A stretch of 64,000 nucleotides of DNA from an uncultured delta proteobacterium (GCA_963808235.1 CAWEEQ010000004.1:1280001-1344000); one strand, 5' to 3'; positions 1,128 through 56,822 are shown, counted from the first letter of the stretch. Notes: a model not told the origin generated them from the letters alone. Made by a program: numbers and translations.

Positions 1128-1278
1128 TCGCTAGTTGAGCCCGATCCGTCGAAAATATCCCGCCAGGTTGAGGGGCGATTGCGGCAGGCATTGTCTGCCG
1201 GACCCTTCAAACATAGCATCTTAACCAGCGTCGCTTGCGGGACCATTTTACATCGCATACGAGGGGCGGGACCGATTG

Positions 1279-2224
1279 ATGCGGATATTTTCCGATCTTG
1301 AGACGGATGGCGCGGTCAGGCCGCACGCCGATCTCGCTTTTTCGCGCGAAAGAATTCGCGCCAATCTGGCCGGCGTAGGCGCGACGATTGCGCTTGCGAG
1401 CGCTCGGGGCGGCGTCGGCAAGAGTGTAGTCGCCGTGAACATCGCGGCGGCGCTCGCGCTCAAGGGCAAGAAAGTTGCGATCGTCGACGCGGACCTCAAT
1501 TCTCCGAGTGTCGCGGCGATGCTCGGGATGAAGCCGCAACGAAATTTTCCGATGGTCGAAGGTATCGAGCCGGCCGCGGGGCCCCATGGTTTGCGCACGG
1601 TCTCGAGCGCGCAGCTAAACGGCGGCGAGGCCTCCGGCAATCAGCTTTGCGCAACACTACGAACAAACTGACGGTGAAAACGACGGTCAGGCTGTCACAC
1701 CTGCGCGACTGAATTCGCCCATACTCGGCTACACGGAAGCTCTGACTCGACTATTCGCACAAACTCAATTCGGTAACGTGGATCTGTTGATAGTCGATCT
1801 CGCGAGCGGGCTCGATCGCCTTCACTCGGTCGCTGCGATGGTTTCGCTCGACGGCGTGCTGCTGCTCAGTCATCCGTCGGAGCACGCTGCCCATGCCGCG
1901 CGCCATGCCTTCGAAATCGCGAGCATGATCGGCGCGCCGATCGTTGGCATCGTCGAGAATATGATTGGATTCAATTGCGACGGATGCCGCTCGGTGAGGC
2001 CGTTATGGCCGGAGGGCGATCTGCACGGCGTCGCGCGCGAGCACAAAGTGCCGATCATCGCGCGGCTGGCGTTCGAGCCGCGCCTCGCCGACAGCAGCGA
2101 TCGCGGCGTACTGTTCGTCCGCGAGCACGCATCCACGCCGACCGGCAAGGGCCTTATCGATCTCGCGAGCAAGGTCGAAGCGATCATCGCGACTCGCGCC
2201 CGCTCCGCACAGACGCCGGCCTGA
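1279..2224 (+). CDS. Mrp/NBP35 (ApbC-like) P-loop ATPase, divergent; one +1 frameshift near 1630
   Basis: ASARGGVGKS Walker A, IVDADLNSPS, GIVENM..FNCDGC; frame starting at 1631 (PPAISF...) runs open into ORF 1778-2224. Confidence 0.8.
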
Positions 2225-2225
2225 C

Positions 2226-4016
2226 TCAATCCGTATCAGAATCTTCGAGGTCGTTGACGCCGGTCATCACCGACTCGGCGCGGCGCGAATATTCGAACAT
2301 TCCAGCGCCTCGATGCGCTCCGGCGCGGAAGCTCGCGAAGCCAAGCGACGTATAGATGCGTGATTGTTCGGGTCCTGGCCGTGAAAGCGGGATGAAGCAT
2401 TCGGCGCGGCCTTCGAAGTCGAACGTCGATCCGTCGGGATTGGCAATCGACGCGGAAATGCTCTCAGGCGGTTCTTCGACAGAGGCGGTCTCGATTGAGA
2501 GTTCGTGGAGTTCGCACGCAGACCATCCGGTGGCGCGAAGAATTCTCGCGCTCTGAGCCGGGAACGCATCGTCAGTCTCGACCGATCGAGCTTCAAGCGC
2601 GCGCGGCGCTCCATCTCCTTCGAAGCATGCCCACAGCATTCGTCGAGCGGAGAACTTCTGCGGCCCCAGTCCGGTGAAGGACATCCCGGCGCGCGCGTAA
2701 CCGGTCACGGCCAGCGCCTTGCCGTCGACGCAGACACTTCCGGCAATTCGGCCGAACGCGGCGCTCGAAGAGGGCGCCGCCGCCGAGTCGGCGGACACCG
2801 ACAGAATTCGATCGAAGTTGAAATCAGTGTCTCCGCGGCCAGATTCGATCTGGAAACGGATTTCTACGTTCATCGCGTGATCGAGCCGGCCCGATGCCAA
2901 CGCGCGTTCGATACTCAAGTACGCGGTCGCATCAGGGACGATCACCGCTGGACCGCGAAACGAAAGGACGATCGCATCGCCCTCGCGCGTGAGCGATAGC
3001 GGCCCGTGCGCGACCGAGCTTTCCGAACGCGTCGGACGGCCCTCGGCGGTGAACAGTGCCGCGCGGCGGCTGTCGAACAGGACCATGATTCGCGCGCCCA
3101 TGCCCGCGCCGCCGACATCGAAGCTCGCCATTGCGCCGATGCGCGCGATGGGATCGAAGAACTCGAGACCGACTCGCCCTGGCGCGGCGCCCGTCGCCGC
3201 GGCGCCGATTTCCGGCCTTGCGATGTGCGGCCGCGGCGCGCGATTGACGACCATCCGAGCGGGTGACGGACGCGGCGCAGAGCCGTTTGGCGAGAATGCC
3301 GCCGCGATAGCTTCCTCGCATCGCGCGCGCAATTCGCCGGGCATCCGCAGCGCCACGGACAGTTCGAGTTGCACGGCGTCGACGCCGCCGCCGACGGAAG
3401 TTTCGGAAATCTTCTTCAGTGCGGCAATCGGACTCTCGCGATGACGCGACGAAAATGCCTGCAACAGATTCTGCAGGCCACCGCCCGGATAGCGCATCCC
3501 ATAGCTCGGCATGATGTTATGCGCGCGCAGCCGCTCAGCCAGATCGGTCAAGGGGCCGTGGATGAAATCGTCGCTCGCCGAGACGCAGGCCGAGCCCGGC
3601 GGGCAGAGTTCGCCGCCAATGTTGCGCAAGCCAAGGCCGATATCGACGCGCGGCTCGATTATGTTCCATCCGTGAACGAGCAGCACTATCGCGTGGCCGT
3701 GACGGGCGACAATCTCTGCGGTTCGGTCCGCGATCATCTCGAGCAACCACGGCGCCTGCTCGACGATCTGCGAAAGTCGGTTGCAGTCAAGCCGGTTACG
3801 ATCCATCCCGATGTTGATTAGCGCCGACGCGCCGAGACGAATCGCAAGTGTGCGCGTGATGTCGGCGGTATGAAGGTCGTTTACTTTCGGATTGAGCAGT
3901 GAGCGAGTGCGCGGCTCCGCGCGTCCACCGTGCGGCGCGATCAGTAGAAACGGCGAATCGGAATCGATCACCTCGAGCCATGAATCGGGCGCGCGATTGA
4001 GCATGGATTCAGGCAT
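2226..4016 (-). CDS. Hypothetical protein: N-terminal N-formylglutamate amidohydrolase-like domain plus beta-rich C-terminal domain
   Basis: LLIAPHGG, NDLHT, RNRLDCNR, LLVHGW, AVQLEL resemble the FGase/Zn-peptidase fold; 596 aa, last gene of the lipid operon. Confidence 0.55.
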   Translation of the reverse strand: MPESMLNRAPDSWLEVIDSDSPFLLIAPHGGRAEPRTRSLLNPKVNDLHTADITRTLAIRLGASALINIGMDRNRLDCNRLSQIVEQAPWLLEMIADRTAEIVARHGHAIVLLVHGWNIIEPRVDIGLGLRNIGGELCPPGSACVSASDDFIHGPLTDLAERLRAHNIMPSYGMRYPGGGLQNLLQAFSSRHRESPIAALKKISETSVGGGVDAVQLELSVALRMPGELRARCEEAIAAAFSPNGSAPRPSPARMVVNRAPRPHIARPEIGAAATGAAPGRVGLEFFDPIARIGAMASFDVGGAGMGARIMVLFDSRRAALFTAEGRPTRSESSVAHGPLSLTREGDAIVLSFRGPAVIVPDATAYLSIERALASGRLDHAMNVEIRFQIESGRGDTDFNFDRILSVSADSAAAPSSSAAFGRIAGSVCVDGKALAVTGYARAGMSFTGLGPQKFSARRMLWACFEGDGAPRALEARSVETDDAFPAQSARILRATGWSACELHELSIETASVEEPPESISASIANPDGSTFDFEGRAECFIPLSRPGPEQSRIYTSLGFASFRAGAHRGAGMFEYSRRAESVMTGVNDLEDSDTD

Positions 4017-4030
4017 TCAGATCGACGCTG

Positions 4031-4788
4031 CTACGTACGCGCGTTCAGTGCGGCTCGTGCGTGGAGAATAAACGACGCAATGAAGTAGTAGGCGATGAAA
4101 CTCAGCGCCGCCCACAGCATCAGGGGATTTACTGTCGGGCAACATGAAGAGCATCGCGACCGTGATGACCGCCCAGATTATTCCGAGCGTCAGCGTTATC
4201 GCCCGAAGTGGCACGGTGCGGTTTGGATATATGTACCTTCATCGGCACGAGGACCATCACGCCGAGAAGCAACAGGACGGCCACATTGAATAAAGTTCCG
4301 TAGCCGAGGCAGAACAGGTAGAACGCGACCAGGTTCCAATAATTCGGGAAGCCGAGAAAATAATGATCGTCAGTCTTGGCGCGGGTCTGGCAAAATCCAT
4401 AGACGCTCGCGAGCATGATGAAACACGCAAGCCCGAGGCCCCATCGCGAGCCCGGAATGATTCCCGCCTCGAGCATCAGGAACACCGGCGCGACCGTGTA
4501 GGTGAGGTAATCGACAATATTGTCGAGCAGTGCGCCATCGAAGGACGGCACTCGCATTTTGACCATCAGCATCCGCGCGAGCGGGCCGTCGCTCGAATCG
4601 ATGATCGTCGCGGCGCCCATTGCCAGGAACGAGGCGCGATAGTCGCCATGGGCCGCGGTGAAAATCGCGATCAGGCCGAGCGCCGCGCCGAGTGCCGTGT
4701 AGAGATGCACGCCCCAGGCGCATACCGTGAGAAATGCCTGGCGCGGAATCGCGCGAGGCAAACTTTCGGCTGCACCTGGTGAGGTCAA
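4031..4788 (-). CDS. pcs: Phosphatidylcholine synthase-like CDP-alcohol phosphatidyltransferase; frameshifts near 4236 and 4133
   Basis: AWGVHLYTALG, DSSDGPLAR...FDGALLDNIVDYLTY, KTDDHYFLGFPNYWN; corrected frames give KYIYPNRT and VNPLMLWAALSFIAYYF, ending at TAG 4031. Confidence 0.75.
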
Positions 4789-4789
4789 G

Positions 4790-5326
4790 TCATTTGTCCG
4801 GCTTGTAGTCGCGCGGTCCGAAATAATCTTCGAGCACCGTCATGAAGGGACCGCACGCGCGTTGTTTCTTGACTAGCATCATCGCCTCATCGAGCGACAT
4901 CCGCCGATACGCGCGCAGAAACGCGATTGCGAGCGTCGGCGCGCGATTCATTCCAGCGTTGCAATGCAGGTAGACGCGCCCGCTCGAATCGACCAGCTCG
5001 CGCAATTCGTGTAGCGCAATTTCGAGCCGCTCAGCCATCGCGTCCGCGCTGCCGTCCTGGATCGGGGTGCGAACATAATCGATTCCGTGCGCGTCATATT
5101 CACTGCGCAGGAGTGTCGGATCCAGACCATTCAGGCGCAAGTCTTCGTCGTCCTGCAGATTGTGCACCGCAGCAATTCCAAAGGTATCCTTCAGCCAGCC
5201 GATATCGTCCTGCCCCGGATATTCGCCGACCAGCAGTTCGTCGGATATCACGCTGACCGACGGACGCCGCCCGTTTCGAGTCGGTCGTGGATCGTGATCG
5301 TGCCGCTTGCTGAACCAATCAACCAT
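4790..5326 (-). CDS. Dual-specificity (CX5R) phosphatase family protein
   Basis: VYLHCNAGMNRAPT P-loop, PIQD acid loop. Confidence 0.88.
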   Translation of the reverse strand: MVDWFSKRHDHDPRPTRNGRRPSVSVISDELLVGEYPGQDDIGWLKDTFGIAAVHNLQDDEDLRLNGLDPTLLRSEYDAHGIDYVRTPIQDGSADAMAERLEIALHELRELVDSSGRVYLHCNAGMNRAPTLAIAFLRAYRRMSLDEAMMLVKKQRACGPFMTVLEDYFGPRDYKPDK

Positions 5327-5403
5327 AACCCAAATGTAACCATCCGCGGGGCCGGTATTCCAGCGCCACCGCGGTTTGCCCCGAAATGCCCGGCATTTGT
5401 GCG

Positions 5404-8400
5404 TTAAGCCTTGGCGTGTCCGCGCGGATTTTCGCGCGATCGTTCGGCTTTGCCAACCACCGGCGTCGACGATTCAGGAACCGCGGAGGGCGCGGGAAGA
5501 TCCTTCGATGCGGATAATCGTAGTCTTCGATTCGAGCCGGCGAGCGCGATAACCGTGTCGCGCATAAAGTCGGCGAGTTTGCGATAAGCGCCGGCGCCTT
5601 CGGAGCTGTCGGCGAGATCGCGTATTTCGGCGGCGGTGATCGCGCCCCCGATTCGGACTTCGACCGCGGAACGCCGCGGGACGAGACTGCCCTTGCCCAT
5701 CACGTCGTGAGTGCCGCGAATCAGCACCGGCAGCACGTCGCACTTGGCGCGCAACGCGAGAAATCCAGCGCCGCTCTTGAACTCATGAATTTCGCCGTCG
5801 GCTGAGCGCGTGCCTTCGGGAAACATCAGGACGCTTCTTCCTTGCGCGAGTTCGGCGAGCGCGTCTTCGAGCGATTCGAGTTGCGCGCGTTCGCGGTCGA
5901 ACGGCATCAGTGTCGTAAAATTCGACGCGAGAAAGCGCCGCGCCGGAGTGTTGAAGAAATAATCCTTGGCCGCGAGCACCCGAAGATCGTCGCCGATCGC
6001 ACCGAGCGCGTAACCGACCAGGCTGAAGTCGAGATGGCTCGAATGATTCGCGACTACGATAAAATTTCGATTTGCGGGGATGTTGCCGCGCCCGAGAATT
6101 GTCGGCTTCAGCCATCCGTCGAAGATCGCCCGCTCGGCGCCACGAACTGTCGCGCGCCCGAGCCATTTGAGCGGCGCCGGCAGATGAAATGTGTACGGCT
6201 CGGCAAACTTCGCGTAGGACGGCATCCGCTGGCGCCCGTTTCCGTTCGGTTGCGTAGACAACCGCTGCAGGTCCGCGACGCTGCGCAGGTCGGCGATCTC
6301 CTCGGGAGCTATATCGCGGCCCGCACGCTGGCCGATAAGCTCGCCGATCTCGGCCAGCGCGAGCGAATCGAGCCCGAGGTCCTCGATCAGACGCGTCGCC
6401 GGAGTGATATTGACCGGCTCCGACGCGATCATAGCCAGCGCCTCGGCGAGCCAGGTTTCTACTTCTGAATTGGCGGCGTCAGTCGCGACATCTTTGACCC
6501 GGACGTCGAGCATCCGGCGCAGTATCGCGGCGACCTCGTTGCGTTTGATTTTGCGGGTGCGCGTCCGTGGCAGTTCCGCATCGACATAACGGATAATCCT
6601 GATTCGCTTGTGCGCGCCGAACTCGCCCGCGACTTTCTCGAAATCGCCGCGCAGCCGATCCTCGACCGCGCGCCGGGTCTCTCCGCGCGAATACGCCGGC
6701 ACGACCAAGGCCGCGACCTGCTCGCCCTTACCGACCTTCAGTCCGACGACCGCCATCTCCTTCACGTACTGCGAACGGCCGTAGGCTTCTTCGAGTTCGT
6801 CTATATAGATGTTGTTGCCGCCGGAATCGACGATGACTTCCTTCGCACGCCCGACAACATACAGACGCCCGTCGCCGTCAAATCTCCCGAGGTCTCCGGT
6901 GTGAAGCCATCCGTCGCGAATAACTTCCGCCGTGGCCGCCTCATTGCGATAGTAACCCGCCATCACGTTCGGCCCGCGCGCCACGATTTCGCCGATCGAT
7001 TCACCTTCGGGATCGAGCTTGATCTCGACTCCGGTCAGCGGCTTGCCGACCGACCCTACCTGGTGCGCCTCGTCGGGTCGCGCGACGGCGAGCACCGGCC
7101 CGGCTTCAGTCAGGCCGTAACCCTCGAGCAGCGGAATTCCGATATCATTGAAAAAATCCGCGACTCGATGGGGCAGGGCGGAGCCGCCGCTGACCGCCAA
7201 CTTAAGCCGCCCGCCGAGCGCGGAATGAACCTGGCGAAATACGATCGAACCGAAGTTGAGGCCGGAGCCCGCGTCCAGCCGGCGATTGAGATCGCGCAGA
7301 TTGTCGAACGCCGCGTGGTAGAAGGGCCCGCGCTCCTCGACTTCGTCAACTATTCGCCGATGCACCGCCTCCCACACCGCAGGCACTCCGATCAGCGCGG
7401 TCGGACGCACGTCTGCAAGCGTTCTGGACAATGTCTTCGCGTCAATTTCCAGCGGGTAGACGATCGTCGCCCCACTCGCAAGCGGCAGCAGCATCCCGCA
7501 GGTGAACTCAAACGTATGATGAAGCGGCAGCAGCGACAGCACGACGTCATCGGCGCCGAGGACGAAGACTCGCGAGAGCATCGCGATCTCCGCGGCGAAA
7601 TTCCCATGCGTCAGCATCACGCCCTTCGGCGCGCCGGTGGTGCCGGAGGTAAAGACCAGAGAGGCGAGCGCCTTGCGTTCGTGCTGGGCGGGCGGCGCTT
7701 TCGCTTCGCCACGTAAAATGAACGGTCGCCCCAGCTCGGCAATGTCGAGCTGGAGAATCTTGCGGTTCATATCGCCGAACGCGTCGCCGAGGCGTTTGTG
7801 CACCGCGCTCGATCGAAGCGCGGCCGCCGGCTCGGCGATCTTGCAGATCGGCGCCAGTTCCTCGGCGGAAATCAAATGATCGAGCGGCACCGCGACCGCG
7901 CCCGCACATAGAATCGCAAAGTAGCCGAGCACCCAGTCGGGCGAGTTCTCGCCGATCAACAGCACTCGATCGCCCGGCTTGATGTTGCGCGTCGCGAGCA
8001 GCAGTGCCCCCCGATGCGCCTTGTCGCGAAGCTCGCGGTAGGTAGTCTGCGTCTGCTCGCCCGAGGGCCGCCGCGCGATCATTGCTACCTGCGATCCATA
8101 ACGCTCTGCCGCACGATCGAGCATGTCGACGAGGTTGCGATGACGCGGCAGGGATTTCGGGCGCCCGCGCGTATGCAGGTCGAGCTGCGGAAAAATGTGG
8201 CGGCGCAGTCCCGGCAGATGGACGTTGAGCCAGTAGTCGTGCCAATCGATCAAGTCGGGGCGAAACGGATGATGCGCAGCGTCGGCGGGCTTCAGCGTCG
8301 CATAGAGCGCGCGAATATTTCCGCCATGAAATGTGTAAACTAGCTCCTGTATGTAAGGCCGATAAACCTCGACTAGGTCGCGCGCGATATCGGTGTTCTC

Positions 8401-9763
8401 CTTGAATTTCCGGATCTCGCTTTCGATTTTCTTCGCGCGTTGATTTTCCGCGCCGACTACGTTGCGGACTAGCTCCGCGCCTTGCTCGAGAACTCGTGGA
8501 ATCGTTCGGCTCGCCAAATCGTAGGTGTTCTGCGACACCACGACCGCCTCCAGATGGCGCCCGAGCCAAGCCATTGAGCCGCTTTCCTTGCGATGCTCGC
8601 GGCGATTGCTGAGCCCGGTAAGCTCGACCAGCCGGCGCATCGGAAGCGGATTCCGATCCGACGTGCAGAGCTGGTAGATGGGCTTTTGCTTGCGGAGAAG
8701 GAGCGCGGCGAGAATCGGAATCATCGCATGCGCGGCGAGATCGACCGGGATCACATCGAGCACCAGGTCGGCCTTCGCCGGATAAAAGCGGTAACCGCGC
8801 CCCGCAAGATAAGTCAGCGGAGCGCTGGTGTTGACCCCCTGGTTCCAGCCGGGAAAAGGATCGCGAAGCGCACTTTCGATGACCGCCGGGCGCACGACGG
8901 TGACGTTCAATCGCCCGCGCTCGGCGAGCACAAGCTGCTCGCCGAGACTTTTCGTATAGCTGTACGTGTTGGGCCAACCCCAACTCTGCGCGCGCTTGCG
9001 TCCAACGTCCTTGAGCCGCTCTTCAACCCACTGCTTGCGGCGATGCTCGACCGCTGACTCGCGCGGACTCTCCGCGTCGAGGTCGTCGTCGCCGCGAAAC
9101 TCCGCGTGGCGGACTTGGTCGCGCGATTCCGCCTCGACCCGCGCGATCGCCGCGAGCGCGTCGCGAATCTCCCGCTCCAAGCGGAACGACTTGCGCCCGC
9201 TCGGGCACCAGTCTTCGGGGATGTCGTCTTCGTAACGATGCCCATCGGCAACTCCCGCCACGTAGCACGTCGATACGTGCAGCATCGCGGCGCCGAGGTT
9301 CGCACAGAACTCGATCACGTTGGCAACGCCGGTGGCGTTCACCTCGATCGCTTTTTCCAGCGACGCTTCGAAGTTCACCAGTCCTGCGCTATGCACCACG
9401 GCGTCGAGACTGCCCGGCTTGAATGGTTTCGCCTCGTCGCCGAGAAGACCGTCGTTGGTGATGTCACCTGGCACGACGATGATCTTTTCCTCGACGTGGC
9501 GATCGAACTGCTCGCCGAAGTGCTCGCGAACAGGGCGTCATCGCAGGCGAATCGAGAATCTCGCGCCGGAAACGGCCGAGACTGCTGCGCAGATCGCCGC
9601 GGATGAGCAAATAGATTTTCTCGATCTCAGGATGCCACCGAAGCATCATCGCGAGAAAAACTTTGCCGAGAAATCCGGTCGAGCCCGTCAGGAGAATTCG
9701 CCGGCCCTTAAACACCTGCTCGAGCGGCGGCATTGCGAGCCTATTTTTGCCGTTACTCGACAT
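5404..9763 (-). CDS. elbD: ElbD-like multifunctional enzyme: fatty acyl reductase (extended SDR) + acyl-CoA ligase + ACP + PlsC-type acyltransferase; +1 frameshift near 9533
   Basis: TGSTGFLG, GWPNTYSYTKSLGE (reductase); FTSGTTGAPKG, EGYGLTE, GWLHTGDLG (adenylation); DLGLDSL (ACP); NHSSHLD, FPEGTRS (acyltransferase); joins ORFs 9464-9769 and 5404-9474. Confidence 0.85.
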
Positions 9764-11393
9764 CCGCAATCACCAACGGTGGCAAATGCAGATACGTAAT
9801 CGAGGCCGAGCGCCCGAGCTCCGCGGTCGCCATCGCGATTGCCTCGTCGAGCGTGTCAGCCGCTTCCCATCCCATTCGCGCCGCTACTTCAGGCTCTTCG
9901 CAGCCCGCCGCAATCACGCGGCCAAGGTGCTGACGCGCCGGCTCGCCCCAGTACCACATGTAGAATGGATGCACCCCGTGATACGCGTTGCCGTAGCGAT
10001 ACATATGGATGTAAGTCGGGTTGCGTGCGAACTCATGCTCGAAATTCTTCTCGAGTTCGACCGCGTCGGTCGTCTCGGCGAGGCATCGATGGAAAAACTC
10101 GATGTAACTCGGATGATGCTCGGGATGAAACTCGTCGCGCAGCGGATGACAAACGATCATGGTGCCACCTTCTCGCACCAGCGGCTTGTTGCGGTACATG
10201 TTGAACAGGTAACCGAGTCCGGTGCACTGCGCGAGAATCGGATTCATGATCGAGTTCACGTTGTACGGACAGATGTACGGGACCCCGACGATCAGAATGT
10301 CGGCCTGACCCTTCACCGGCACCGCGTATTGTTGGAAGACTCGCGCGAGCGCCTTCTGATGCACCGTCTCGGTGTCGCCCGCCCACACCCCGATCATTCC
10401 GTAGGGCGCCGCATAGTTGTGCAGCACCTGGCGGCGAAGCTCGCTCGACATGTTGCGCAGCGTCCACTGAAAACCCTTCAACCGCGTGCGATCCCAATCG
10501 CTGAACTGGTCTTCGTTCTTGTGCAGGAAATCGAGCATCCCGCCGTACATCCGAGTGTTCACCGCGGTCTCGATCTGAAAAATATTCAGCGATTCGTGGA
10601 TGAGCTTGCCCATCCGATCCGACGAGCGATGCAGCGCCGAGCGCGTGGGATCCATGTACGAATGCGAATCGCGCAGCGTCTGCGGGTTATGGTGATGACG
10701 CAGGCTCTGATACGGCGCGAGACCCACGGCAACCGACTTATGCCCGCCGTCCATCGGCACCAGGTTGATATTCAGATAGATGAGCAGGTCGGAATCCGCG
10801 GCGCGCTTCGAGAGCCAGACTTCCTCGCCATGGCCGGTTTTGCCGAGCATCGCAAGCTCGGCGCGATTTTCCGCGTCGAAATTGTATAGCCGGTCCGGCC
10901 AGTACTGTTTGAACGCGCGCTCGCCCACGATTCGGCGAATCTCCGCCTCCGTCATCCGCCGATGTAGCGAAGTGGCGATCACAAGGTGCACGTCATCGAC
11001 GCCGTAGTCGGCGAGAGTCTGCAGCACCTGGTTCAGGAGGCGCTCGCGGATGTCGGGCCGGCGCATCTGCGGCAGCGGCAAACTGATGTCGTCGATAGCG
11101 ATCGTCACGCGCATGTTGGGACTCAACTGCGCGAACAACGGATCCTGGTTTTCAGGATGAAGCAGCGCGTAGCGAATCGCCTGGTCGGCATCCGCGAGCG
11201 GCTCCAGCGGCGGCGGTGGATAGATCACTCGCGTGCCCACCGGCAGCTTCTCGAACAGGAACTCTTCGCCGCAAGGAATGATCCGGCGCTCGGAACGCCG
11301 GTTGACGGTCACGACCAGGTCGCGGCGCGCACCGACTTCATGACGAAGCTCGGCGGGCTTGAGTTCCTTGAGCTTGCCTTCAGGACGCGCCAT
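9753..11393 (-). CDS. Lactate-racemase (LarA/DUF2088)-fold protein, ElbC-like
   Basis: VTIAIDDISLP, IATSLHRRMT, GGHKS motifs; overlaps the neighbouring genes on both sides. Confidence 0.75.
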   Translation of the reverse strand: MARPEGKLKELKPAELRHEVGARRDLVVTVNRRSERRIIPCGEEFLFEKLPVGTRVIYPPPPLEPLADADQAIRYALLHPENQDPLFAQLSPNMRVTIAIDDISLPLPQMRRPDIRERLLNQVLQTLADYGVDDVHLVIATSLHRRMTEAEIRRIVGERAFKQYWPDRLYNFDAENRAELAMLGKTGHGEEVWLSKRAADSDLLIYLNINLVPMDGGHKSVAVGLAPYQSLRHHHNPQTLRDSHSYMDPTRSALHRSSDRMGKLIHESLNIFQIETAVNTRMYGGMLDFLHKNEDQFSDWDRTRLKGFQWTLRNMSSELRRQVLHNYAAPYGMIGVWAGDTETVHQKALARVFQQYAVPVKGQADILIVGVPYICPYNVNSIMNPILAQCTGLGYLFNMYRNKPLVREGGTMIVCHPLRDEFHPEHHPSYIEFFHRCLAETTDAVELEKNFEHEFARNPTYIHMYRYGNAYHGVHPFYMWYWGEPARQHLGRVIAAGCEEPEVAARMGWEAADTLDEAIAMATAELGRSASITYLHLPPLVIADVE

Positions 11394-12228
11394 TCGAACC
11401 TCGCCTGTTTTGCTCGCGGTCTTCTTCGTCGTCGAAGTTGGATTCGCCAATATCGTCCAGGACCGCGTCGCCGTCCGAAGAAACACGGTCGTTCGAAAAA
11501 GCCAGATCGCGCGAAGACGGACTCTTCTCGAAACGGATCACAGGCCATTGCCGATTGGTCGCCGCGGTGAACAACTTGCGATCGGGATTGACGGCTACCG
11601 GATGCCCCAACGCGGCGAGGAACGCCGTGTCGTAGTGCGAGTCCGCGTACCCCCAACAATCGGCGAGGTCGATATCCCGCTCGGCGGCATATTGCGCGCA
11701 CCAGACCGCCTTCTCGTCGCTGGCCATCACCGGCGCTTTAAGTCGCCCCGTCGCCACGCCTCGGCTGAAGACGAATCGGTTGGCGGCGAAGTCTGCGATC
11801 TCCAGATGCCGCGCGAGCGGTTCCACGATGAAATCCGGCGAGCCGGTTACCAGCACCGGCGCGATACCGGCGCTGCGATTCGCCTCGATCAGCTCGACCG
11901 CCAGCGGATACAGGTTGCGAATCAGTACCCGCTCGCAATATTCTTCGCCGAGCGAGAACAGGCGATCGCGCGAGACACCCTTGAAAGCCTCGAACAGGAC
12001 CGTGTTCAAGAGCCGCCGATCGCGGCGCTCGGCAAGGTAGAGTTGCGGGATTCGCGCCGCGAAGCCGAACAGGTACGACAGCCGCCCGCTCCATTCGCCG
12101 ACGTTGGCGAGCATAAAAAGCGCTGCATGCACCAGGTTCAAGCCGACCAGGGTGCCGTCGAGGTCGTAAAAAGCGGCGCGGCGCTTTTTCACTCGCGCCA
12201 TGGCGCCATCTTTGTGGGAAACTGACAT
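11380..12228 (-). CDS. HAD-IB family phosphatase (ElbB/SerB-like); start possibly 12201
   Basis: AAFYDLDGTL, LVTGSPD, GYADSHYD, GHPVAVNPD. Confidence 0.9.
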   Translation of the reverse strand: MSVSHKDGAMARVKKRRAAFYDLDGTLVGLNLVHAALFMLANVGEWSGRLSYLFGFAARIPQLYLAERRDRRLLNTVLFEAFKGVSRDRLFSLGEEYCERVLIRNLYPLAVELIEANRSAGIAPVLVTGSPDFIVEPLARHLEIADFAANRFVFSRGVATGRLKAPVMASDEKAVWCAQYAAERDIDLADCWGYADSHYDTAFLAALGHPVAVNPDRKLFTAATNRQWPVIRFEKSPSSRDLAFSNDRVSSDGDAVLDDIGESNFDDEEDREQNRRGSNGAS

Positions 12229-12234
12229 GTCAGT
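12221..12234. promoter_or_regulatory. Perfect 14-bp palindrome ACTGACATGTCAGT, candidate TetR operator
   Basis: Self-complementary; lies directly after the tetR stop at the start of the HAD gene and overlaps a minus-strand TAGACT -10-like hexamer. Confidence 0.5.
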
Positions 12235-12900
12235 CTAGTTTTTGCTCCAAAAAAAAGGGTCCGGGTCGGGGCCGGACTCGCTCGCCGACTCGCCCTGAGG
12301 ACGGATAAACTTCAGCAGCTCCGGCCGCGCCACTCCGCGCAGTCCGAAGTCGAGGATCTCTTCGACGAATTCCTGCTTGTCGATCCCGCGGCTGCGCGAG
12401 ATCATGCCGATTACCTCCTTGATGCCGCCCAAAATCGCGTACGAGGTCGCGCGCGTGTTCGATTTGCGCACCAGGTTCATTTCGATTCCCAAATCCAGCG
12501 AACGCTGAATCAGCGCCGCGATTCGATCGTAAAAATCCTGGATTTTCTCGTCGAGCTCGCGGTCGAAGCCGGTCGAATGATTGAGCAGGATGTCGGTGAG
12601 TTCGCGTTCGGTGAGCACGTATGCGAGCACCCGCTCGAGGTTATCGCGCAACTGTTGCACCGGATCGGGATGCCCCGGGCCAACCCGCAGCCGTTCAATC
12701 CTGGTCGTCAGTTCGCCGACCACTTGCTCGAGCAGTTCCTCGAAAAGGTCTTTCTTGTTCTGAAAATAAAGATAAAAGGTGCCCCGCGCGATTCCCGCGC
12801 GCGCAATGATGTCCGCAACGTTGGTCCTGTGATAACCCTTGCGAGCAAAGATACGTTTGGCGTGGCGCAACACTTGCGCGCGTCGTGCTTGACGTTCCAT
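12235..12900 (-). CDS. TetR/AcrR family transcriptional regulator
   Basis: IFARKGYHRTNVADIIARAGIARGTFYLYFQNKKDLF HTH. Confidence 0.93.
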   Translation of the reverse strand: MERQARRAQVLRHAKRIFARKGYHRTNVADIIARAGIARGTFYLYFQNKKDLFEELLEQVVGELTTRIERLRVGPGHPDPVQQLRDNLERVLAYVLTERELTDILLNHSTGFDRELDEKIQDFYDRIAALIQRSLDLGIEMNLVRKSNTRATSYAILGGIKEVIGMISRSRGIDKQEFVEEILDFGLRGVARPELLKFIRPQGESASESGPDPDPFFWSKN

Positions 12901-12933
12901 CGGGGGTGCCTTGGGCAGAATTCCGGCGACTTC

Positions 12934-12963
12934 AGGCTAGTCCACGAATACTTTTAGTGTCAA
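12934..12963 (-). promoter_or_regulatory. Candidate sigma70 promoter for the tetR-elb operon
   Basis: Minus-strand TTGACA-18 bp-TAGCCT, about 35 bp upstream of the tetR ATG. Confidence 0.5.
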
Positions 12964-13011
12964 ACCAATATCGGCGTAGAATTTCGTGCCAAAACTTCTT
13001 GAGGAGAACGA

Positions 13012-13467
13012 TTGATGAGCGACCCATCTTTTTGGAACAAAGTCCACGCGGCTGCCAGCAAAGCAACATGGGCATATCTCGCGACCGCCGACGGAAATCA
13101 GCCCAAAGTTCGCGTCGTGCATCCCGCGTTCGAAGGCGAACGCGTATGGGTCGCGACCGGCCGCGGCTCGGCGAAGGCCCGCCAGATCGGAAAAAATTCC
13201 AACGTGGAACTCTTCTACCAGATTGGCGCCGAGATGGTTCATCTGACCGTGACTGGGAAGGCGACCTTTGTCGCGGACCCGGCCGAGAAGAAGCGAATCT
13301 GGAACGGGAAGGTGTTCGATTACGATCTCAGTCAGTTCTGGCCGGCCGGGCCCGACGCGGATGACTTTGGCCTGATGCTGATAACACCGGCGCGCATTGA
13401 GCTGACGTCGTTGTCTGAGATGACGACCGGAAAGAAGCCTGAAGTCTGGCGCAGTGCTAAAAAGTGA
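13012..13467 (+). CDS. Pyridoxamine 5'-phosphate oxidase-like FMN-binding protein (general stress protein 26-like)
   Basis: LATADGNQPKVR, TGRGSAKARQIGKNSNVEL; GAGGAG SD upstream. Confidence 0.82.
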   Translation: MMSDPSFWNKVHAAASKATWAYLATADGNQPKVRVVHPAFEGERVWVATGRGSAKARQIGKNSNVELFYQIGAEMVHLTVTGKATFVADPAEKKRIWNGKVFDYDLSQFWPAGPDADDFGLMLITPARIELTSLSEMTTGKKPEVWRSAKK

Positions 13468-13660
13468 TTACTCACATCGACTGGCTATTCAACGATTAGC
13501 TACTTTGAGCATTATTGTGAGGCATGAAATGTAGTAAACTATCTGTTCCGCGCCGACCAAAATACATAGTCAAGTAGTTACCTTAGTAACACCGCGCACT
13601 CCTCTCATTTCGCGCTTCGATCTCAGTATGTGAGCGACTGAAATAAAAGAGGGGTATACA

Positions 13661-14905
13661 ATGTTAAGAAGCTCGAAGGTCGGGCGCGGCTCGGTTGGGC
13701 GATGGACAGTGGCGGCGGGAGCGTTGATCGTCGCGCTCACTGTCACGGCTTCCGCTTCCAATTCATTCGCCACCATTATTGAGGCCTGTCAGAGGCGCAA
13801 CGGCAGAATTCTGATCGTCGATCCCAAGGGCTCCAAGGGTCCAGCGCATTGTGATCAGGACGAGACCCTGATCACCTGGAACGTACAGGGTCTGACGGGT
13901 CAGATGGGTCAGCAAGGTCCGGCAGGTCCGGTGGGTCAAGCAGGTCCGGCAGGTCAGGCAGGGTCAGCGGGGCCTGCGGGACCACTGGGTCCTATCGGAT
14001 CGGCGGGACCGTCGGGACCGAGTGGCCCGATGGGTAACGCCGGCGCGGCCGGACTGACCGGACCAGCGGGACCGAGTGGCCCGATGGGTGACACCGGCGC
14101 GGCCGGACCAACCGGACCAGCGGGACCGAGTGGCCCGATGGGTGACACCGGCGCGGCCGGACTGACCGGACCAGCGGGACCGAGTGGCCCGATGGGTGAC
14201 ACCGGCGCGGCCGGACCGACCGGACCCTCGGGACCGAGTGGCCCGATGGGTGACACCGGCGCGGCCGGACCGACCGGACCCTCGGGATCGAGTGGCCCGA
14301 TAGGTAACACCGGGGCGGCCGGACCGACCGGACCAGCAGGCGCTGACGGAGCCTCTGGCGCTACTGGCGCGACAGGTCCCTTGGGACCATCAGGGCCAGC
14401 GGGCGCGGACGGATCTGCGGGAGCTACTGGAGCGACTGGCCCCTCTGGTCCGACAGGTGCGACCGGTTCGAGTTCGGCGCTGGTCTTTGGCGGCACTCAA
14501 AACAGCTCGATGGACGTCACCAATCCGACCTATATGGGTCCAGGCAACGGCGTCCTTGTCACAGCCGTCCAGACCACCGGGACCCAAACGGTTGGCGTCC
14601 CGATGCCAGTCGCGGGCATCCTGAGCAATCTCCAGATACATATCACGAACCCTATGTTTGAGCCTCTGGGTTTGGATTCCTGGACATTCAATGTATGCGT
14701 GAACAACACCTGCACGAATGGTTTGGCATGCACGATAAACAGCGGGATAATTCCAACCACGGTGTGCAGTGACAACGTCGACACCGTGAGCTTTGCCGCT
14801 GGTGACCTCCTGACGATTCAGGCAGTGCCGACCAACAATTCAGGTCTACTGCCAGCTACGCCGGCGGGTTTCTCGGCCACCTACGCGCCGCTGCCGCCGA
14901 CGTAA
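13661..14905 (+). CDS. Secreted collagen-like (Gly-X-Y) protein with C-terminal beta domain
   Basis: N-terminal signal peptide, long uninterrupted GXY tract, Cys-containing C-terminal domain; AGAGG SD. Confidence 0.85.
   Translation: MLRSSKVGRGSVGRWTVAAGALIVALTVTASASNSFATIIEACQRRNGRILIVDPKGSKGPAHCDQDETLITWNVQGLTGQMGQQGPAGPVGQAGPAGQAGSAGPAGPLGPIGSAGPSGPSGPMGNAGAAGLTGPAGPSGPMGDTGAAGPTGPAGPSGPMGDTGAAGLTGPAGPSGPMGDTGAAGPTGPSGPSGPMGDTGAAGPTGPSGSSGPIGNTGAAGPTGPAGADGASGATGATGPLGPSGPAGADGSAGATGATGPSGPTGATGSSSALVFGGTQNSSMDVTNPTYMGPGNGVLVTAVQTTGTQTVGVPMPVAGILSNLQIHITNPMFEPLGLDSWTFNVCVNNTCTNGLACTINSGIIPTTVCSDNVDTVSFAAGDLLTIQAVPTNNSGLLPATPAGFSATYAPLPPT
14013..14336 (+). repeat. Six tandem 54-bp repeats in the collagen tract
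   Basis: Copies start at 14013, 14067, 14121, 14175, 14229, 14283 (GPSGPMGDTGAAGPTGPA unit). Confidence 0.92.
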
Positions 14906-21459: not shown

Positions 21460-23501
21460 ATGCCCTCCGAAGACGACAATCGCAACCCCGCCAAAAACCC
21501 GGTTGGCCCTGAGTACAGCTCGCTCATCGAGTATCCAAAAGAGGAGGGCGTCACCGTTCCCGCCGCATCTCCAGTCGAAAGCGACGTGGACACCAAGTTG
21601 GACGCCACATCTACCGACGCCGGCGTTTACCTGCTGCGCGATCGCGCTGGCAAAGTGCTCTATGTCGGTAAAGCGAAATCCCTGCGCTCGCGCGTGCGCG
21701 CCTACTTCCGCGAGGGCGGCGACGGCCGCTACCAGGTGCGCTTCCTGATGCGCCGGGTCGTTGACTTCGACACTATCGTCACCGCCAGCGAGAAAGAGGC
21801 GCTGATTCTCGAAAACAACCTGATCAAGCAGTACAAGCCGCGCTACAACATCCGCCTCAAGGACGACAAATCCTATCTGAGCGCCAAGGTCACCAATCAC
21901 GCATGGCCGCGGATCACGGTCACTCGCAAGATCGTTAAAGACGGTGGCCACTACTTCGGTCCGTTCGGGTCTGCGGACGGTTTGCGCGAGACGATCGACG
22001 TCATCCGCAAAACTTTTCCGTTGCGCACTTGTACTGACGCGGTCTTTCGCAATCGCTCGCGGCCATGCCTGGAGTACCAGATCAAGCGATGCCTCGGGCC
22101 GTGCTGTTTGCCCGTCGATCGCGATGAATACGGGCGCCATCTGCACGCAGCGCAGATGCTGCTCGAGGGCAAGAACCTCGAACTGCTGCATGAGATGCGC
22201 GATCAGATGAAGGATCACGCGTCCCGGCTCGAGTTCGAGGAAGCGGCGCGAATCCGCGATCGCGTCCGCGCGATCGAAAAGACTGTCGAGAAACAGACCG
22301 TCCTGCATCACTGGGGAATCGATCAGGACGTGTTCGGGATTTATCGCGAGGGCGGATTCATCGAGGCCATCGTGCTCATCGTGCGCGGCGGCAAGTTGAC
22401 CAGCACCCAGGGTTGGAGCTTTCAGGACGTTGAGTTCCCGGTCCACGACATCCTCTCCGATCTCTGACCCAGTATTACTCGGGCGCGCGCAACATCCCCG
22501 ACGAAGTGATCGTGCCGGTCGAACTCGAAGACGCCGAGGTGCGCGCCGAGCTGCTCTCAGAGCGGCGCGGGAAGAAATGCGAAATTCTGCTGCCGCAGCG
22601 CGGTGAGAAACTCAGGCTGCTCGAAATGGCGATGGACAACGCGCGGCAGAGTTTCGCCTCGCGCCGCGACAACGAAAAGACCCGCGAGCAAATGCTCGAC
22701 GACTTGCGCGTCAAGCTGAACCTGCGCAACTCGCCCAAGCGGATGGAATGCTACGACATCTCTAACCTTCAAGGCTCGATGGTGGTCGGATCGCAGGTGA
22801 CCTTCGACGAAGGCGAGCCGCAGAAAAATCTCTACCGCCGCTACCGCATCCGCAGCTTCGAAGGCCAGGACGATTTCGCCGCGATGTACGAAGTCCTGAA
22901 GCGCCGCCTCGAACGCGCGACCCGCGAAAAAGAGTATCCCGATTTGTGGGTGATCGACGGGGGCAAGGGGCAGTTGAATGTCGCGCTCGAGGTACTGCGC
23001 GAATTCAAGCTCCTCGATCAGATCGATTGCGTGTCGCTCGCCAAGCAGCACGTGCTCAACGAGCGCTACGAGAAGGAGGTGACCAAATCCGAGGAGCGCG
23101 TCTTTCTGCCCAATCGCAAGGACCCGATCGTGCTGCCGAAAAATTCCACCGCCTTGTTCCTGCTGGTCCGTATCCGCGACGAGGCGCATCGCTTTGCGAT
23201 CACCTACAATCGCGAACTCCGCCGCCGCGCGCGGCTGCGCTCGGTCCTCGACGACATCGAAGGCGTCGGCCCCGTCCGCCGCCGCGCGATGCTTCGCCAC
23301 TTCGGAAGTCTGCGCCGCATCCGCGAAGCGACCGTCGACGAAATCGCGGCAGTGAAGGGACTCAATCGCGATGTCGCAGCCGAGATTCGGCGCCATCTCG
23401 ACGAGATGGCGGCGCTGCTCGATCGCGAGGAAAGCGCCGAATCTGGTGACGAGCCGCCTGCTCCCGATGGTCTGGCGGAACCTGGCAGTCAAGGTGCATA
23501 A
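21460..23501 (+). CDS. uvrC: Excinuclease ABC subunit C; one base missing near 22463
   Basis: GIY-YIG (GVYLL...LYVGKAKSLR), PRYNIRLKDDKSY, ECYDISN, IDGGKGQ, IRDEAHRFAI, HhH; DL|LTQYYSG restores the frame. Confidence 0.93.
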
Positions 23502-54593: not shown

Positions 54594-56822
54594 TTGGCGG
54601 CGAATAAAACTGTCAGTCCGCGCCGGCTCGTGGAGCGCAAGCGACGCCGCCGCGAGTTGATCGCGGTTGGCGTGGCCGGCGCGACGCTCGTCGCATTCGT
54701 GCTCGCCCAGACCGAACTGCCGCCGCTCACGCGGCACACCTCGCTGGTCTCGAACCTCGCCGTCATCTCGCTCTTCAACCTGAGCTTCCTGCTGCTCGGC
54801 CTGATGCTGTTCCTGGTCGGGCGCAATCTCGCCAAAGTTATTTTCGAGCGCCGCCGCGGACTGATCGGCTCGAAGTTCCAGGTCAAGCTGGTGGCTGGAT
54901 TTATCGCCGTTGCGCTGATTCCAAGCGCCTTCCTCCTGTATGTCTCCGGCGTGTTTCTGCACGAACAAATCAATAGCTGGTTCAACCCCGAATACGAGCA
55001 GATCCTCGACGACTCGCTCGAGATCGCCAAAACCTACTATTTGAACTCGGCCAACAACGCGTCCCATTTCGCGCGCGAGCTGGCCGAGCAAATCTCCGCA
55101 CTGGGATTGCTCGCGCCGAATAAGCGCGACGATTTGAAAAAGTTCATCGCCCGGCGTCAGCAGGAATACAATCTCGGCACCATCGAGGTTTTCTCCGCCG
55201 ACCGCAAACTCCTGCTCCTCGACATCAGTCCCAAGACTCCGACCGGCATCGGCGCTTCGCCCGATTCTCCGATTATCTCACAGACTCTGAAGGGAGAGGC
55301 TCTCACTCGCACCGATCGGCTCGGCAACGCCGACGTGGTGCGCGGCTCCGCGCCGATTTACGTTTCCGCCGAGACCGACAACGTTCTTGGTGCGGTCCTG
55401 GTCGACTATTACTTGCCGAAGAGCCTGGCCACGCGTGCGACCGATATCTCGCGGGTGTCGGAAGATTATTTCCAGCTCCGGATTCTTCGCCAGCCACTCA
55501 TGAACAGCTATCTGCTGACGCTGGTCTTGATCGGACTGGTTGTGGTGACGCTCGCGAGCTGGTTCGGGATATTTTTGTCACGCGGAATCACCGGCCCGAT
55601 CAAGCTGCTTGCCCGCGGAACGCAGGCAGTTGCCGGCGGCGATCTGAACTTCCGCATTCCTGCCGTCGGCGACGACGAGATCGGCCAACTGGTCGATTCC
55701 TTCAACCAGATGACCGCCGACCTGCGCAGCTCCGGCGCCGAACTCGAGCGCCGCCGCCAGTACACAGAGACGCTGCTCCGCAACGTGTCCGCCGGTGTCG
55801 TCGGTCTTGACCATGAAGGCGTTGTCACGACGATCAATCCATGCGCCGAGCGCCTGCTCGGCCTCGACAGTGCCAGCGTGATCGGTCGCAACTACCAGGG
55901 TGCTTTTCCGCCCTCGCTCGCGCGCTCGCTGGACGACGTATTTGCGACCGCGATGCGGCCGCGCGAGGCGCGCTCGACCGTCAAGCTCGAGGTCTCGGGC
56001 ACCGAGATGGAACTAATGATGACCGCGAGCCCGCTCGGCGACACTCCGAACGCGCCCGCTGGAACAGTGCTTTTCTTCGAGGACGTGAGCCAGATCGCGA
56101 AGGTCGAGCGGATGGAAGCGTGGCGCGAAGTCGCGCGCCGAATCGCGCACGAAATCAAAAATCCATTGACGCCGATCCAGCTTTCCGCCGAGCGCCTTCG
56201 CCGCCAGCTAGGCTCGCGCGCTGGCGCCGAATCGGCGCTGGTCGAGGAATGCACCCGCGTCATCATTGGCGAGGTCGAGGACCTGAAGCGGCTCGTCAAC
56301 GAATTTTCCGCGTTCGCACGGATGCCGCATCTGAACCTGATTCCCGGCGATATCAACCTGCTCGCGAGCGAGACCGCCGCCAATTTCCGCGAAGCCAACC
56401 CCAACGTGGATTTCGCGCTTACGCTCGATGCGTCAGTGCCCCCGATTCTGATCGATCGCGAAGCCCTGAAGCGCGCGCTGGTCAACCTGCTCGACAACGC
56501 CGTCGCCGCGGTGAGCGCCGTCAATCATAACGGCGACCGCCCGCGAATCGAGGTTCTAAGCCGCCGCCGCGCCGACAATTCCATCGTCACTGTCGAAGTC
56601 GCCGACAACGGGCCCGGAATCGATCCGCGCCTGCGCACCCGCATCTTCGAGCCCTACTATTCGAGCAAGAAGGGTGGCACCGGACTCGGCCTCGCAATCG
56701 TGTCGGCGGTGGTCTCGGACCATCACGGCTTCGTTCGTGTGATCGATAACCAGCCGCATGGAAGTAGATTTGTACTGGAGTTTCCCGTACAATCCGCACA
56801 ATTCGTAAAGGCAACTGCCTGA
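54594..56822 (+). CDS. ntrY: NtrY-type membrane sensor histidine kinase (HAMP-PAS-HisKA-HATPase)
   Basis: WREVARRIAHEIKNPLTPIQLSAERL H-box, DEIGQLVDSFNQM HAMP, DNGPG, GTGLGL. Confidence 0.88.
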   Translation: MAANKTVSPRRLVERKRRRRELIAVGVAGATLVAFVLAQTELPPLTRHTSLVSNLAVISLFNLSFLLLGLMLFLVGRNLAKVIFERRRGLIGSKFQVKLVAGFIAVALIPSAFLLYVSGVFLHEQINSWFNPEYEQILDDSLEIAKTYYLNSANNASHFARELAEQISALGLLAPNKRDDLKKFIARRQQEYNLGTIEVFSADRKLLLLDISPKTPTGIGASPDSPIISQTLKGEALTRTDRLGNADVVRGSAPIYVSAETDNVLGAVLVDYYLPKSLATRATDISRVSEDYFQLRILRQPLMNSYLLTLVLIGLVVVTLASWFGIFLSRGITGPIKLLARGTQAVAGGDLNFRIPAVGDDEIGQLVDSFNQMTADLRSSGAELERRRQYTETLLRNVSAGVVGLDHEGVVTTINPCAERLLGLDSASVIGRNYQGAFPPSLARSLDDVFATAMRPREARSTVKLEVSGTEMELMMTASPLGDTPNAPAGTVLFFEDVSQIAKVERMEAWREVARRIAHEIKNPLTPIQLSAERLRRQLGSRAGAESALVEECTRVIIGEVEDLKRLVNEFSAFARMPHLNLIPGDINLLASETAANFREANPNVDFALTLDASVPPILIDREALKRALVNLLDNAVAAVSAVNHNGDRPRIEVLSRRRADNSIVTVEVADNGPGIDPRLRTRIFEPYYSSKKGGTGLGLAIVSAVVSDHHGFVRVIDNQPHGSRFVLEFPVQSAQFVKATA

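Follow-up and report, generated by a model that had tools for sequence, protein, structure and literature searches.

A 64,000-nucleotide stretch of DNA from an uncultured delta proteobacterium (GCA_963808235.1 CAWEEQ010000004.1:1280001-1344000), referred to here at its full length as the window, contains between positions 2226 and 12900 a series of genes resembling the elb ether-lipid genes of myxobacteria. The question raised by this locus is whether it forms a single ether-lipid operon extended by additional genes, as proposed in an original prediction made from the sequence, or whether separate lipid functions are placed side by side. The source genome is a Candidatus Binatus (family Binataceae, class Binatia, Binatota; soil), and close ElbD homologues come from sources named Candidatus Binatus and Candidatus Binataceae. 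Open reading frame (ORF) calls, named by Pfam and NCBIfam profiles, gave seven long ORFs, all on the minus strand, and both coordinates and spacings agreed with the seven co-oriented, tightly spaced genes predicted originally. Once three frameshifts are read through, the junctions, in the order of transcription, measure 6 bp (gap), 14 bp (overlap), 11 bp (overlap), 77 bp (gap), 1 bp (gap) and 14 bp (gap). In the same order, the genes are the following.

12235-12900, minus strand: TetR-family regulator, 221 amino acids (aa) (PF00440, 61.4 bits; PF17932, 30.6 bits)
11380-12228, minus strand: HAD-IB phosphatase, ElbB-like, 282 aa (PF12710, 95.5 bits; TIGR01490, 113.6 bits)
9753-11393, minus strand: ElbC-type LarA homologue of the nickel-pincer-nucleotide enzyme family, 546 aa (NF052592, 839.4 bits)
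5404-9763, minus strand: ElbD-like FAR/acyl-CoA synthetase/ACP/AGPAT enzyme, with one frameshift (Pfam domains)
4790-5326, minus strand: CX5R dual-specificity-type phosphatase, 178 aa (PF00782, 57.7 bits; HCNAGMNR)
4031-4788, minus strand: Pcs-family CDP-alcohol phosphatidyltransferase, with two one-base frameshifts (PF01066, 24.8 bits)
2226-4016, minus strand: two-domain protein of 596 aa, termed U596 (predicted structure; no family above threshold)

The reading that we favor, with moderate confidence, is that two lipid units would be arranged head to tail, an elb core followed by a putative head-group module, and that the frameshifts would be consensus errors. The core is a recognisable variant of the known elb system and not a new pathway; it is TetR-controlled, devoid of ElbE, confined to the Binataceae within its class and located next to a lineage-specific, probable head-group module.

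The core was first compared with its myxobacterial counterpart. According to the accounts of the M. xanthus elbABCDE genes (Lorenzen et al. 2014) given in PMC9131029 and PMC13012113, elbA and elbE encode NAD-dependent epimerases, elbB a HAD protein, elbC a protein without assigned function and elbD a FAR-ACS-ACP-AGPAT enzyme whose deletion blocks alkyl ether lipids. The window contains the same type of ElbD, an ElbB-like HAD and an ElbC-type gene. The Pfam domains of its ElbD follow the order NAD_binding_4 (/Sterile), AMP-binding, PP-binding, Acyltransferase, and the ElbB-like HAD (TIGR01490 cut-off, 98.3 bits) is encoded in the same operon, so that both resemblances to M. xanthus noted in the original prediction, the four-domain order and the neighboring hydrolase, were recovered. 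Through the two overlaps, the HAD and ElbC genes lie directly upstream of elbD, and the order HAD, LarA homologue, four-domain ElbD was also found in Myxococcus dinghuensis, Pyxidicoccus fallax and five Corallococcus species (C. exercitus, C. terminator, C. llansteffanensis, C. praedator and C. interemptor). Gene order and orientation in the core thus match those of the Myxococcaceae loci, although the proteins have diverged: identity is just 38-39% for ElbD (over residues 3-1311), 35-38% for the HAD and 51-54% for ElbC. The window differs from the M. xanthus locus in three further respects, as it carries no ElbA- or ElbE-type epimerase, has a tetR gene in first position and, alone of the two, is followed directly by the phosphatase, Pcs-like and U596 genes. 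That these last three genes are foreign to the described myxobacterial cluster had been stated in the original prediction and was verified.

To delimit the distribution of the core, loci were collected from one genome per species, six aligned LarA homologues of Binataceae serving as query. Of the 80 loci that this survey yielded, 29 are of Binataceae type and the other 51 belong to other phyla. In the latter set, 36 loci had the HAD gene directly upstream of that for the LarA homologue and 18 had a four-domain ElbD directly downstream; the remaining loci showed split or rearranged versions, for instance in Bryobacterales and Acidimicrobiales. Distribution within the class was established on 24 genomes of the same genus and on a sample of 301 genomes of the class, which include genomes flagged as unpublished (G018, G023, G204, G228 and G233). 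Full-length ElbD matches were obtained in 22 of the 24 same-genus genomes. The 16 genomes examined from other families of the class gave none, their matches being confined to the AMP-binding part, at about 35% identity. The NF052592 profile (LarAH) exceeded its cut-off in 44 of the 301 Binatia genomes, all 44 of them Binataceae. Within its class, the elb locus is therefore confined to the Binataceae. Four Binataceae genomes negative for LarAH were tested and were also devoid of ElbD; the LarA homologue strictly co-occurs with ElbD and was never separated from it.

Occurrence outside myxobacteria had been presented in the original prediction as a distinguishing feature. The operon is indeed present here, but such clusters are already published: elb-like clusters are described in Acidobacteriota, Poribacteria and more than 150 organisms (bioRxiv 10.64898/2026.06.23.733905; PMC11868695; PMC9426513), and some of them, as presented in the first two of these sources, adjoin CDP-alcohol phosphatidyltransferases or a phosphatase. 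With the clusters known from Acidobacteriota and Poribacteria living as sponge symbionts (bioRxiv 10.64898/2026.06.23.733905; PMC9426513) the window has elbD and elbB homologues in common; it differs from them in phylum and habitat (Binatota, soil), and the neighboring genes are likened by description only. The text of bioRxiv 10.64898/2026.06.23.733905, supplements aside, does not contain the words elbC, racemase, LarA or nickel. A literature search returned, among the matches listed, no paper joining Binatota, Binatia or Binatus with ether lipid.

The tetR gene comes first in the cluster in all Binataceae loci having upstream sequence. The best NCBIfam match of its product is a FadR-type fatty-acid regulator (64.7 bits, below the cut-off). 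One promoter-like sequence was recognised in front of it.

12934-12963, minus strand: promoter-like sequence TTGACA-N18-TAGCCT, lying some 35 nt upstream of the start codon of tetR

As the TTGACA hexamer is invariant in 8/8 aligned Binatus upstream regions, this sequence may act as the tetR promoter. It was missed by a general promoter and terminator scan of positions 1500-14000, which was uninformative (2 promoter-like and 9 terminator-like sites found, against 3.3 and 11.0 expected). A search for inverted repeats that could serve as an operator upstream of tetR gave three short palindromes, none convincing. Divergent from tetR, at about 12990-13100 on the plus strand, lies a small conserved gene starting MSDPSFWNKVHAAA, the 5' coding region of which is conserved in 7/8 aligned congeners.

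We then asked what the third gene of the core encodes. The original prediction correctly placed a LarA-fold gene in the operon and did not recognise it as elbC. The Myxococcus LarA homologue scores 848.1 bits on NF052592 (LarAH14/15/16), for which the cut-off is 740, and the order HAD, LarAH, ElbD is shared with Myxococcaceae; because of these two observations, the LarA-fold gene is identified by homology and synteny as ElbC, and elbC, between elbB and elbD, belongs to the NF052592 subfamily of LarA. To examine its catalytic residues, ElbC was aligned to solved LarA homologues, with residue roles taken from the description in PMC12611868 and numbering along the 547-residue translation of 9753-11396, whose first residue precedes the ATG. 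ElbC retains D103, the Asp that binds the ribose of the cofactor, nickel-pincer nucleotide (NPN), the first catalytic His (H145) and the NPN-tethering Lys (K220), and H236, 16 residues past K220, occupies the place of the Ni ligand. The carboxylate-binding Arg of the D-I-T-R-P motif is replaced by Leu106, and Asn209 stands in the place of the second catalytic His. These features are general: among 74 ElbC-type sequences drawn from the 80 loci, D103, H145, N209, K220 and H236 are invariant and position 106 is Leu or Val, never Arg. By these residues, ElbC is assigned to one-histidine nickel-pincer-type enzymes. Like the LarA superfamily groups that have no second catalytic His (Desguin 2020 groups 14/15, as cited in PMC12611868), it has the Lys tether, the His that binds Ni and the first catalytic His; compared with the superfamily at large, other residues take the place of both the second catalytic His and the carboxylate-binding Arg, and the gene lies in a lipid context instead of a sugar-acid or hydroxy-acid context. 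The substrate may thus be a non-carboxylate alcohol. The family name does not fix the reaction, since a protein labelled LarAH15 is reported in PMC11770544 to be a gluconate 2-epimerase, with the reserve that group numbering may differ between papers.

Cofactor synthesis genes were found elsewhere in the genome, outside the window: LarB (293.5 bits, cut-off 175), LarC (215.9 bits, cut-off 90) and LarE (326.8 bits, cut-off 150). In a profile search, ElbC was the sole LarA-family (Lar_N) gene of the genome and therefore, on present evidence, the LarB/LarC/LarE machinery serves ElbC alone. In a quick tree, 25 Binataceae ElbC sequences formed one clade (SH-aLRT 100), next to one sequence from a Myxococcota metagenome-assembled genome. 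Among the matches listed in a literature search, no paper brought together elbC or ether lipids on one side and LarA or the nickel pincer on the other.

From these assignments a route can be proposed for the first unit (tetR, HAD-IB, ElbC and ElbD), which would be the form that the elb ether-lipid core of bacteria takes in Binataceae. ElbD would activate a fatty acid, load it on its own ACP and reduce it with the FAR domain, and its AGPAT domain would acylate a glycerol-phosphate-type acceptor. ElbC, with the nickel-pincer cofactor supplied by LarB, LarC and LarE, would carry out a hidden redox step on a non-carboxylate alcohol, and the HAD would take off a phosphate, the outcome being a 1-O-alkyl glycerolipid precursor. 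We infer that the organism would thereby produce alkyl glycerol ethers.

The absence of ElbE bears directly on this proposal. No elbE-like epimerase or patatin gene is present in the operon, in agreement with the original prediction. An ElbE-type epimerase directly follows ElbD in the Myxococcus, Corallococcus and Pyxidicoccus loci. Altogether 42 of the 51 non-Binataceae loci have such an epimerase, with three weak matches of 36% identity or less among them; the corresponding figure is 0/29 in Binataceae. A search of the whole genome found no ElbE orthologue: the best match, 35% identical and about 1 Mb away, is HpnA (TIGR03466, 466 bits against a cut-off of 367.65) and adjoins hpnE, hpnD and hpnC. 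This hopanoid/squalene cluster of hpnA, hpnE, hpnD and hpnC (locus L142, G000 C4:2369000-2374000) was noted in passing to have truncated or overlapping hpnD and hpnC ORFs, possibly another frameshift. The 29 loci show that the ElbE epimerase is dispensable in cis. As ElbC is never found apart from ElbD, this in turn points to ElbC, as a nickel-pincer-type enzyme, as a candidate for the ether-forming step of the aerobic bacterial pathway.

Several of these data weigh against ether-lipid production, and they were considered together with an alternative in which the core makes fatty aldehydes or alcohols destined for wax esters, or another acylated glycerolipid, and the LarA homologue is an unrelated sugar-acid or polyol epimerase. 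ElbE, missing from all 29 Binataceae loci and from the genome, is needed for full ether-lipid levels in M. xanthus according to PMC9131029, and Pontiella is reported in PMC11868695 to have an ElbD homologue with no ether lipids detected. A homologue of the WS/DGAT family of wax ester synthases/acyltransferases (170.7 bits) is encoded elsewhere in the genome, at G000 C4:3597501-3598301, and could use the fatty alcohols made by the FAR domain, wax esters thus being a possible product; the gluconate 2-epimerase labelled LarAH15 (PMC11770544) would fit the epimerase part of the alternative. Nevertheless, the HAD-LarAH-ElbD order is common to Myxococcaceae, and in M. xanthus, as described in PMC9131029 and PMC13012113, it is the deletion of elbD that blocks alkyl ether lipids. 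Furthermore, replacement of the carboxylate-binding Arg in 74/74 ElbC-type sequences argues against a hydroxy-acid substrate, and an AGPAT domain is fused to the FAR domain. On balance we regard a product without ether bond as unlikely and retain an alkyl glycerol ether as the expected one. For the CarF/PEDS1 family (PF10520), no match was obtained in the genome, nor in control genomes, so that its absence is not established.

The relation between the core and the three downstream genes was analyzed by comparing gene orders. The full seven-gene order is kept in 11/13 congeneric loci, a conservation well beyond chance, and occurs also in three other Binataceae genera. Among 22 Binataceae loci in which ElbD is complete and the downstream sequence extends for 3.5 kb or more, the phosphatase and Pcs-like genes are downstream in 18. 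Genomes G009 and G018 are devoid of both ElbD and the U596 gene. Such linkage would be expected if the seven genes formed one pathway, in which the phosphatase, the Pcs-like protein and U596 would serve solely to tailor what ElbD makes, all genes being transcribed together from the tetR promoter. The single strand, the gaps of 77 bp at most and the position of tetR directly before the downstream genes in two genomes (tetR-phosphatase-Pcs-U596 in G042 and tetR-phospholipase C (PLC)-like-phosphatase-Pcs-U596 in G243) would fit as well.

Four kinds of evidence oppose this. First, the Binataceae genomes G042, G223, G243 and G252 keep the phosphatase-Pcs-U596 unit, or the U596 gene, without LarAH and ElbD. 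Secondly, the two units are unlinked in other genomes: in G094, G275 and G315, which represent three other Binataceae genera, and in G016, tetR-HAD-ElbC-ElbD and the downstream module fall on separate contigs, and in G014 about 9.5 kb lies between them. Thirdly, no phosphatase, Pcs or U596 gene was found in the flanks of the 51 elb-type loci from other phyla. Finally, the 77-bp gap contains a conserved element of its own.

5327-5363, minus strand: conserved element CTGGAATAC-N18-TTACAT, its TTACAT lying 7 nt before the ATG of the phosphatase gene

The GGAAYA motif of this element is present in all 22 Binatus-type rows of the alignment (which include the genome of the window and at least one genome twice) whatever the upstream gene, and in other genera a -10-like hexamer stands equally far before the phosphatase gene. 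The element may be a separate promoter giving a leaderless mRNA. Two other interpretations of it were discarded, a sigma-54 promoter since the GG-to-GC spacing is too short, and an N-terminal extension of the phosphatase since no in-frame ATG, GTG or TTG is found upstream.

Because the downstream genes persist without the core, are unlinked from it in other genera, are preceded by their own element and are missing from the flanks of all 51 loci from other phyla, they are best described from these comparisons as a separable module and not as an obligate extension of the elb pathway. Two points count against separate units: the promoter reading derives from conservation, the general scan not having risen above chance, and the 77-bp spacing, the common strand and the linkage in most Binataceae loci would also fit a single operon. 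A seven-gene pathway nevertheless appears improbable to us, and two adjoining units remain the preferred description. The extension of the elb operon announced in the original prediction therefore holds as synteny, in 11/13 congeners, and fails as obligate association, as the four genomes without a core demonstrate; likewise, the synteny that it proposed to check exists within Binataceae (phosphatase and Pcs-like genes in 18/22 loci) and is absent from the elb-type loci of the other phyla. Distant homologues of U596 (30-38% identity) were detected in 207/301 genomes of the class, many without ElbD. Ten such loci from other Binatia families had varied neighbors, mostly of acyl-CoA metabolism, with neither Pcs nor phosphatase, and did not clarify the function.

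Some Binatus genomes have an additional gene, not present in the window, that separates elbD from the phosphatase gene and encodes an exported protein of about 283 aa of the zinc-dependent phospholipase C/S1-P1 nuclease type (PF00882, 37.1 bits).

L012:12054-12911, L016:7166-8014, L022:12022-12879, L014:7074-7925 and L015:12083-12931: PLC/S1-P1-like genes

The three products of the downstream unit were characterised individually. The phosphatase has the HC-x5-R loop HCNAGMNR and exceeds the PF00782 cut-off of 33.5 bits. Among solved sequences it comes closest to two glucan phosphatases of plants, LSF2 (E 7e-19, 71.7 bits) and SEX4, aligned over 138 residues, which belong with other dual-specificity phosphatases that have non-protein substrates; compared with LSF2 and SEX4, the phosphatase of the window is bacterial, has no carbohydrate-binding module and is encoded beside a phospholipid transferase. 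This kinship hints at a non-protein phospho-alcohol as substrate.

The Pcs-like protein has an intact CDP-alcohol motif, D-x2-DG-x2-AR...G-x3-D-x3-D, and D64, D67, G68, A71, R72, G85, D89 and D93 are invariant in 25 sequences. Bacterial Pcs is the best-matching family, of similar size (about 255 aa), whereas the scores are far from those of phosphatidylcholine synthases proper: the Pcs equivalog gave 160.7 bits for the gene of the window and 185.5 for an intact congener, both below the cut-off, and the five phosphatidylcholine synthase equivalogs gave 185.5, 142.2, 141.7, 133.8 and 128.9 bits for the intact congener against cut-offs of 440, 350, 400, 400 and 300, respectively (129-186 bits against 300-440). 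A further difference from bacterial Pcs is the pairing with a phosphatase and an amidohydrolase-fold protein, neither of which is needed for choline condensation. Six further CDP-alcohol transferase genes are present in the genome. A search of the literature on Pcs paired with a dual-specificity phosphatase found nothing relevant.

For U596, all Pfam matches were below threshold and NCBIfam gave none. The family comprises 293 representative clusters at E <=0.001 among 1.84 billion proteins; in a search of the ESM Atlas the nearest clusters were unnamed, and Binatota was the commonest phylum. The structure was predicted with high confidence (pLDDT 91.3, pTM 0.92) and consists of two domains. 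Residues 4-249 match in the model the N-formylglutamate-amidohydrolase/PghP fold, with Z-scores of 16.7 to 2q7s and 2odf and 14.2 to 3a9l (root-mean-square deviation (rmsd) 3.1 over 195 aligned residues for 2q7s), PF05013 reaching only 14.2 bits against a cut-off of 28.9. Residues 277-581 form an AttH-like (CrtC-like) double beta-barrel, with a Z-score of 20.9 to 2ich (rmsd 3.2, 248 aligned residues) and of 18-20 to Fsa2, CghA, 25-phosphosteroid lyase and kievitone hydratase (Foldseek E 1e-8 to 1e-10). The invariance of H29, D47, H115 and E218 suggests a live active site. We read the model as a putative lipid-binding barrel fused to an amidohydrolase-type domain; U596 is a new two-domain family, soluble and restricted to Binatia.

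Combined, these features suggest that the three-gene unit probably builds a lipid head group. In such a Binataceae-specific module of LSF2-like phosphatase, divergent Pcs-family transferase and soluble amidohydrolase/AttH-barrel protein, a phosphorylated alcohol would be attached to a CDP-activated lipid and subsequently trimmed, and either ether or diacyl backbones may be used.

Three frameshifts interrupt the locus. The one in elbD lies near 9530-9545, in the reductase domain: the fragment 9464-9769 carries profile positions 1-54 of NAD_binding_4 and the fragment 5404-9474 the remainder. The Pcs-like gene carries its two in the last third, near 4236-4240 and 4135-4139. Three frameshifts inside 10.7 kb, together with the complete loss of HAD-LarAH-ElbD in some congeners, could mean that the operon is decaying in this strain through real inactivating mutations. 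Genes of essential type are, however, split as well. The Mrp/NUBPL-type ATPase gene is distributed over two frames on the plus strand (1225-1668, profile positions 2-81; 1619-2221, positions 97-245), and so is uvrC (21460-22467 and 22434-23498), whose C-terminal half begins mid-domain at 22434 and whose presumed upstream piece is a 335-aa ORF in another frame just before it. The source is an assembly of 4.59 Mb in 4 contigs, and the split mrp and uvrC genes point to roughly one indel error per 10 kb of assembly.

To check the frameshifts, contigs from four public soil runs were aligned to positions 1200-12900. Across 11.7 kb, these near-identical contigs showed four one-base omissions, all at predicted frameshift sites: 1633 in mrp, 4240 at the first Pcs site, and 4135 and 4137 at the second, where a base was omitted in two runs from different studies. 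Deleting one base per site brought the sequence into agreement with the congeners, in which ElbD is intact in 13/13 loci (1450-1462 aa) and both the Pcs-like transferase (253-258 aa) and Mrp in 11/11. Two reservations weigh against this correction, namely that each omission comes from a single contig at a depth of 2.5-3 and is weak singly, and that at the elbD site none was found among the aligned soil contigs, coverage there not being established. Since the soil contigs do not have the extra bases of the two Pcs sites and of mrp, the congeners are intact and the housekeeping genes mrp and uvrC are split too, the three frameshifts are most likely long-read consensus errors and not signs of gene decay, which we consider very unlikely.

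These results have a bearing on the origin of soil ether lipids, which serve as environmental proxies and whose makers are poorly known. Metagenomes of soil and peat commonly contain Binatus and its relatives, and the complete elb core present in 44/49 sampled Binataceae genomes adds a candidate source. The adjoining module, with its LSF2-like phosphatase, divergent Pcs and new two-domain family, represents a small enzyme set that would serve a non-standard phospholipid head group. A bolder scheme can be envisaged, in which HAD, ElbC and ElbD alone would form the alkyl-glycerol ether bond, with no ElbE or AGPS-type partner in the cluster, ElbC transiently oxidising a glycerol hydroxyl to permit an ester-to-ether exchange, and in which the leaderless module would add a lineage-specific head group derived from a phosphorylated, N-acylated alcohol. 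We hold this full scheme to be quite doubtful, more so than either of the alternatives of a core without ether product and of a single seven-gene pathway; if true, abundant soil Binatus would carry a previously unseen ether phospholipid.

Two other genes of the window were noted. Upstream of the tetR region, at 13661-14905 on the plus strand, lies a gene for a 414-aa protein with collagen triple-helix repeats (PF01391, 96 bits, three stretches). At 56868-58145, also on the plus strand, a single ORF of 425 aa combines the receiver domain of a response regulator with an LpxC (UDP-3-O-acyl-GlcNAc deacetylase) domain and directly follows an NtrY-like HAMP/PAS histidine kinase (54594-56822); judged by its domains, this fusion would place lipid A synthesis under direct phosphorelay control.

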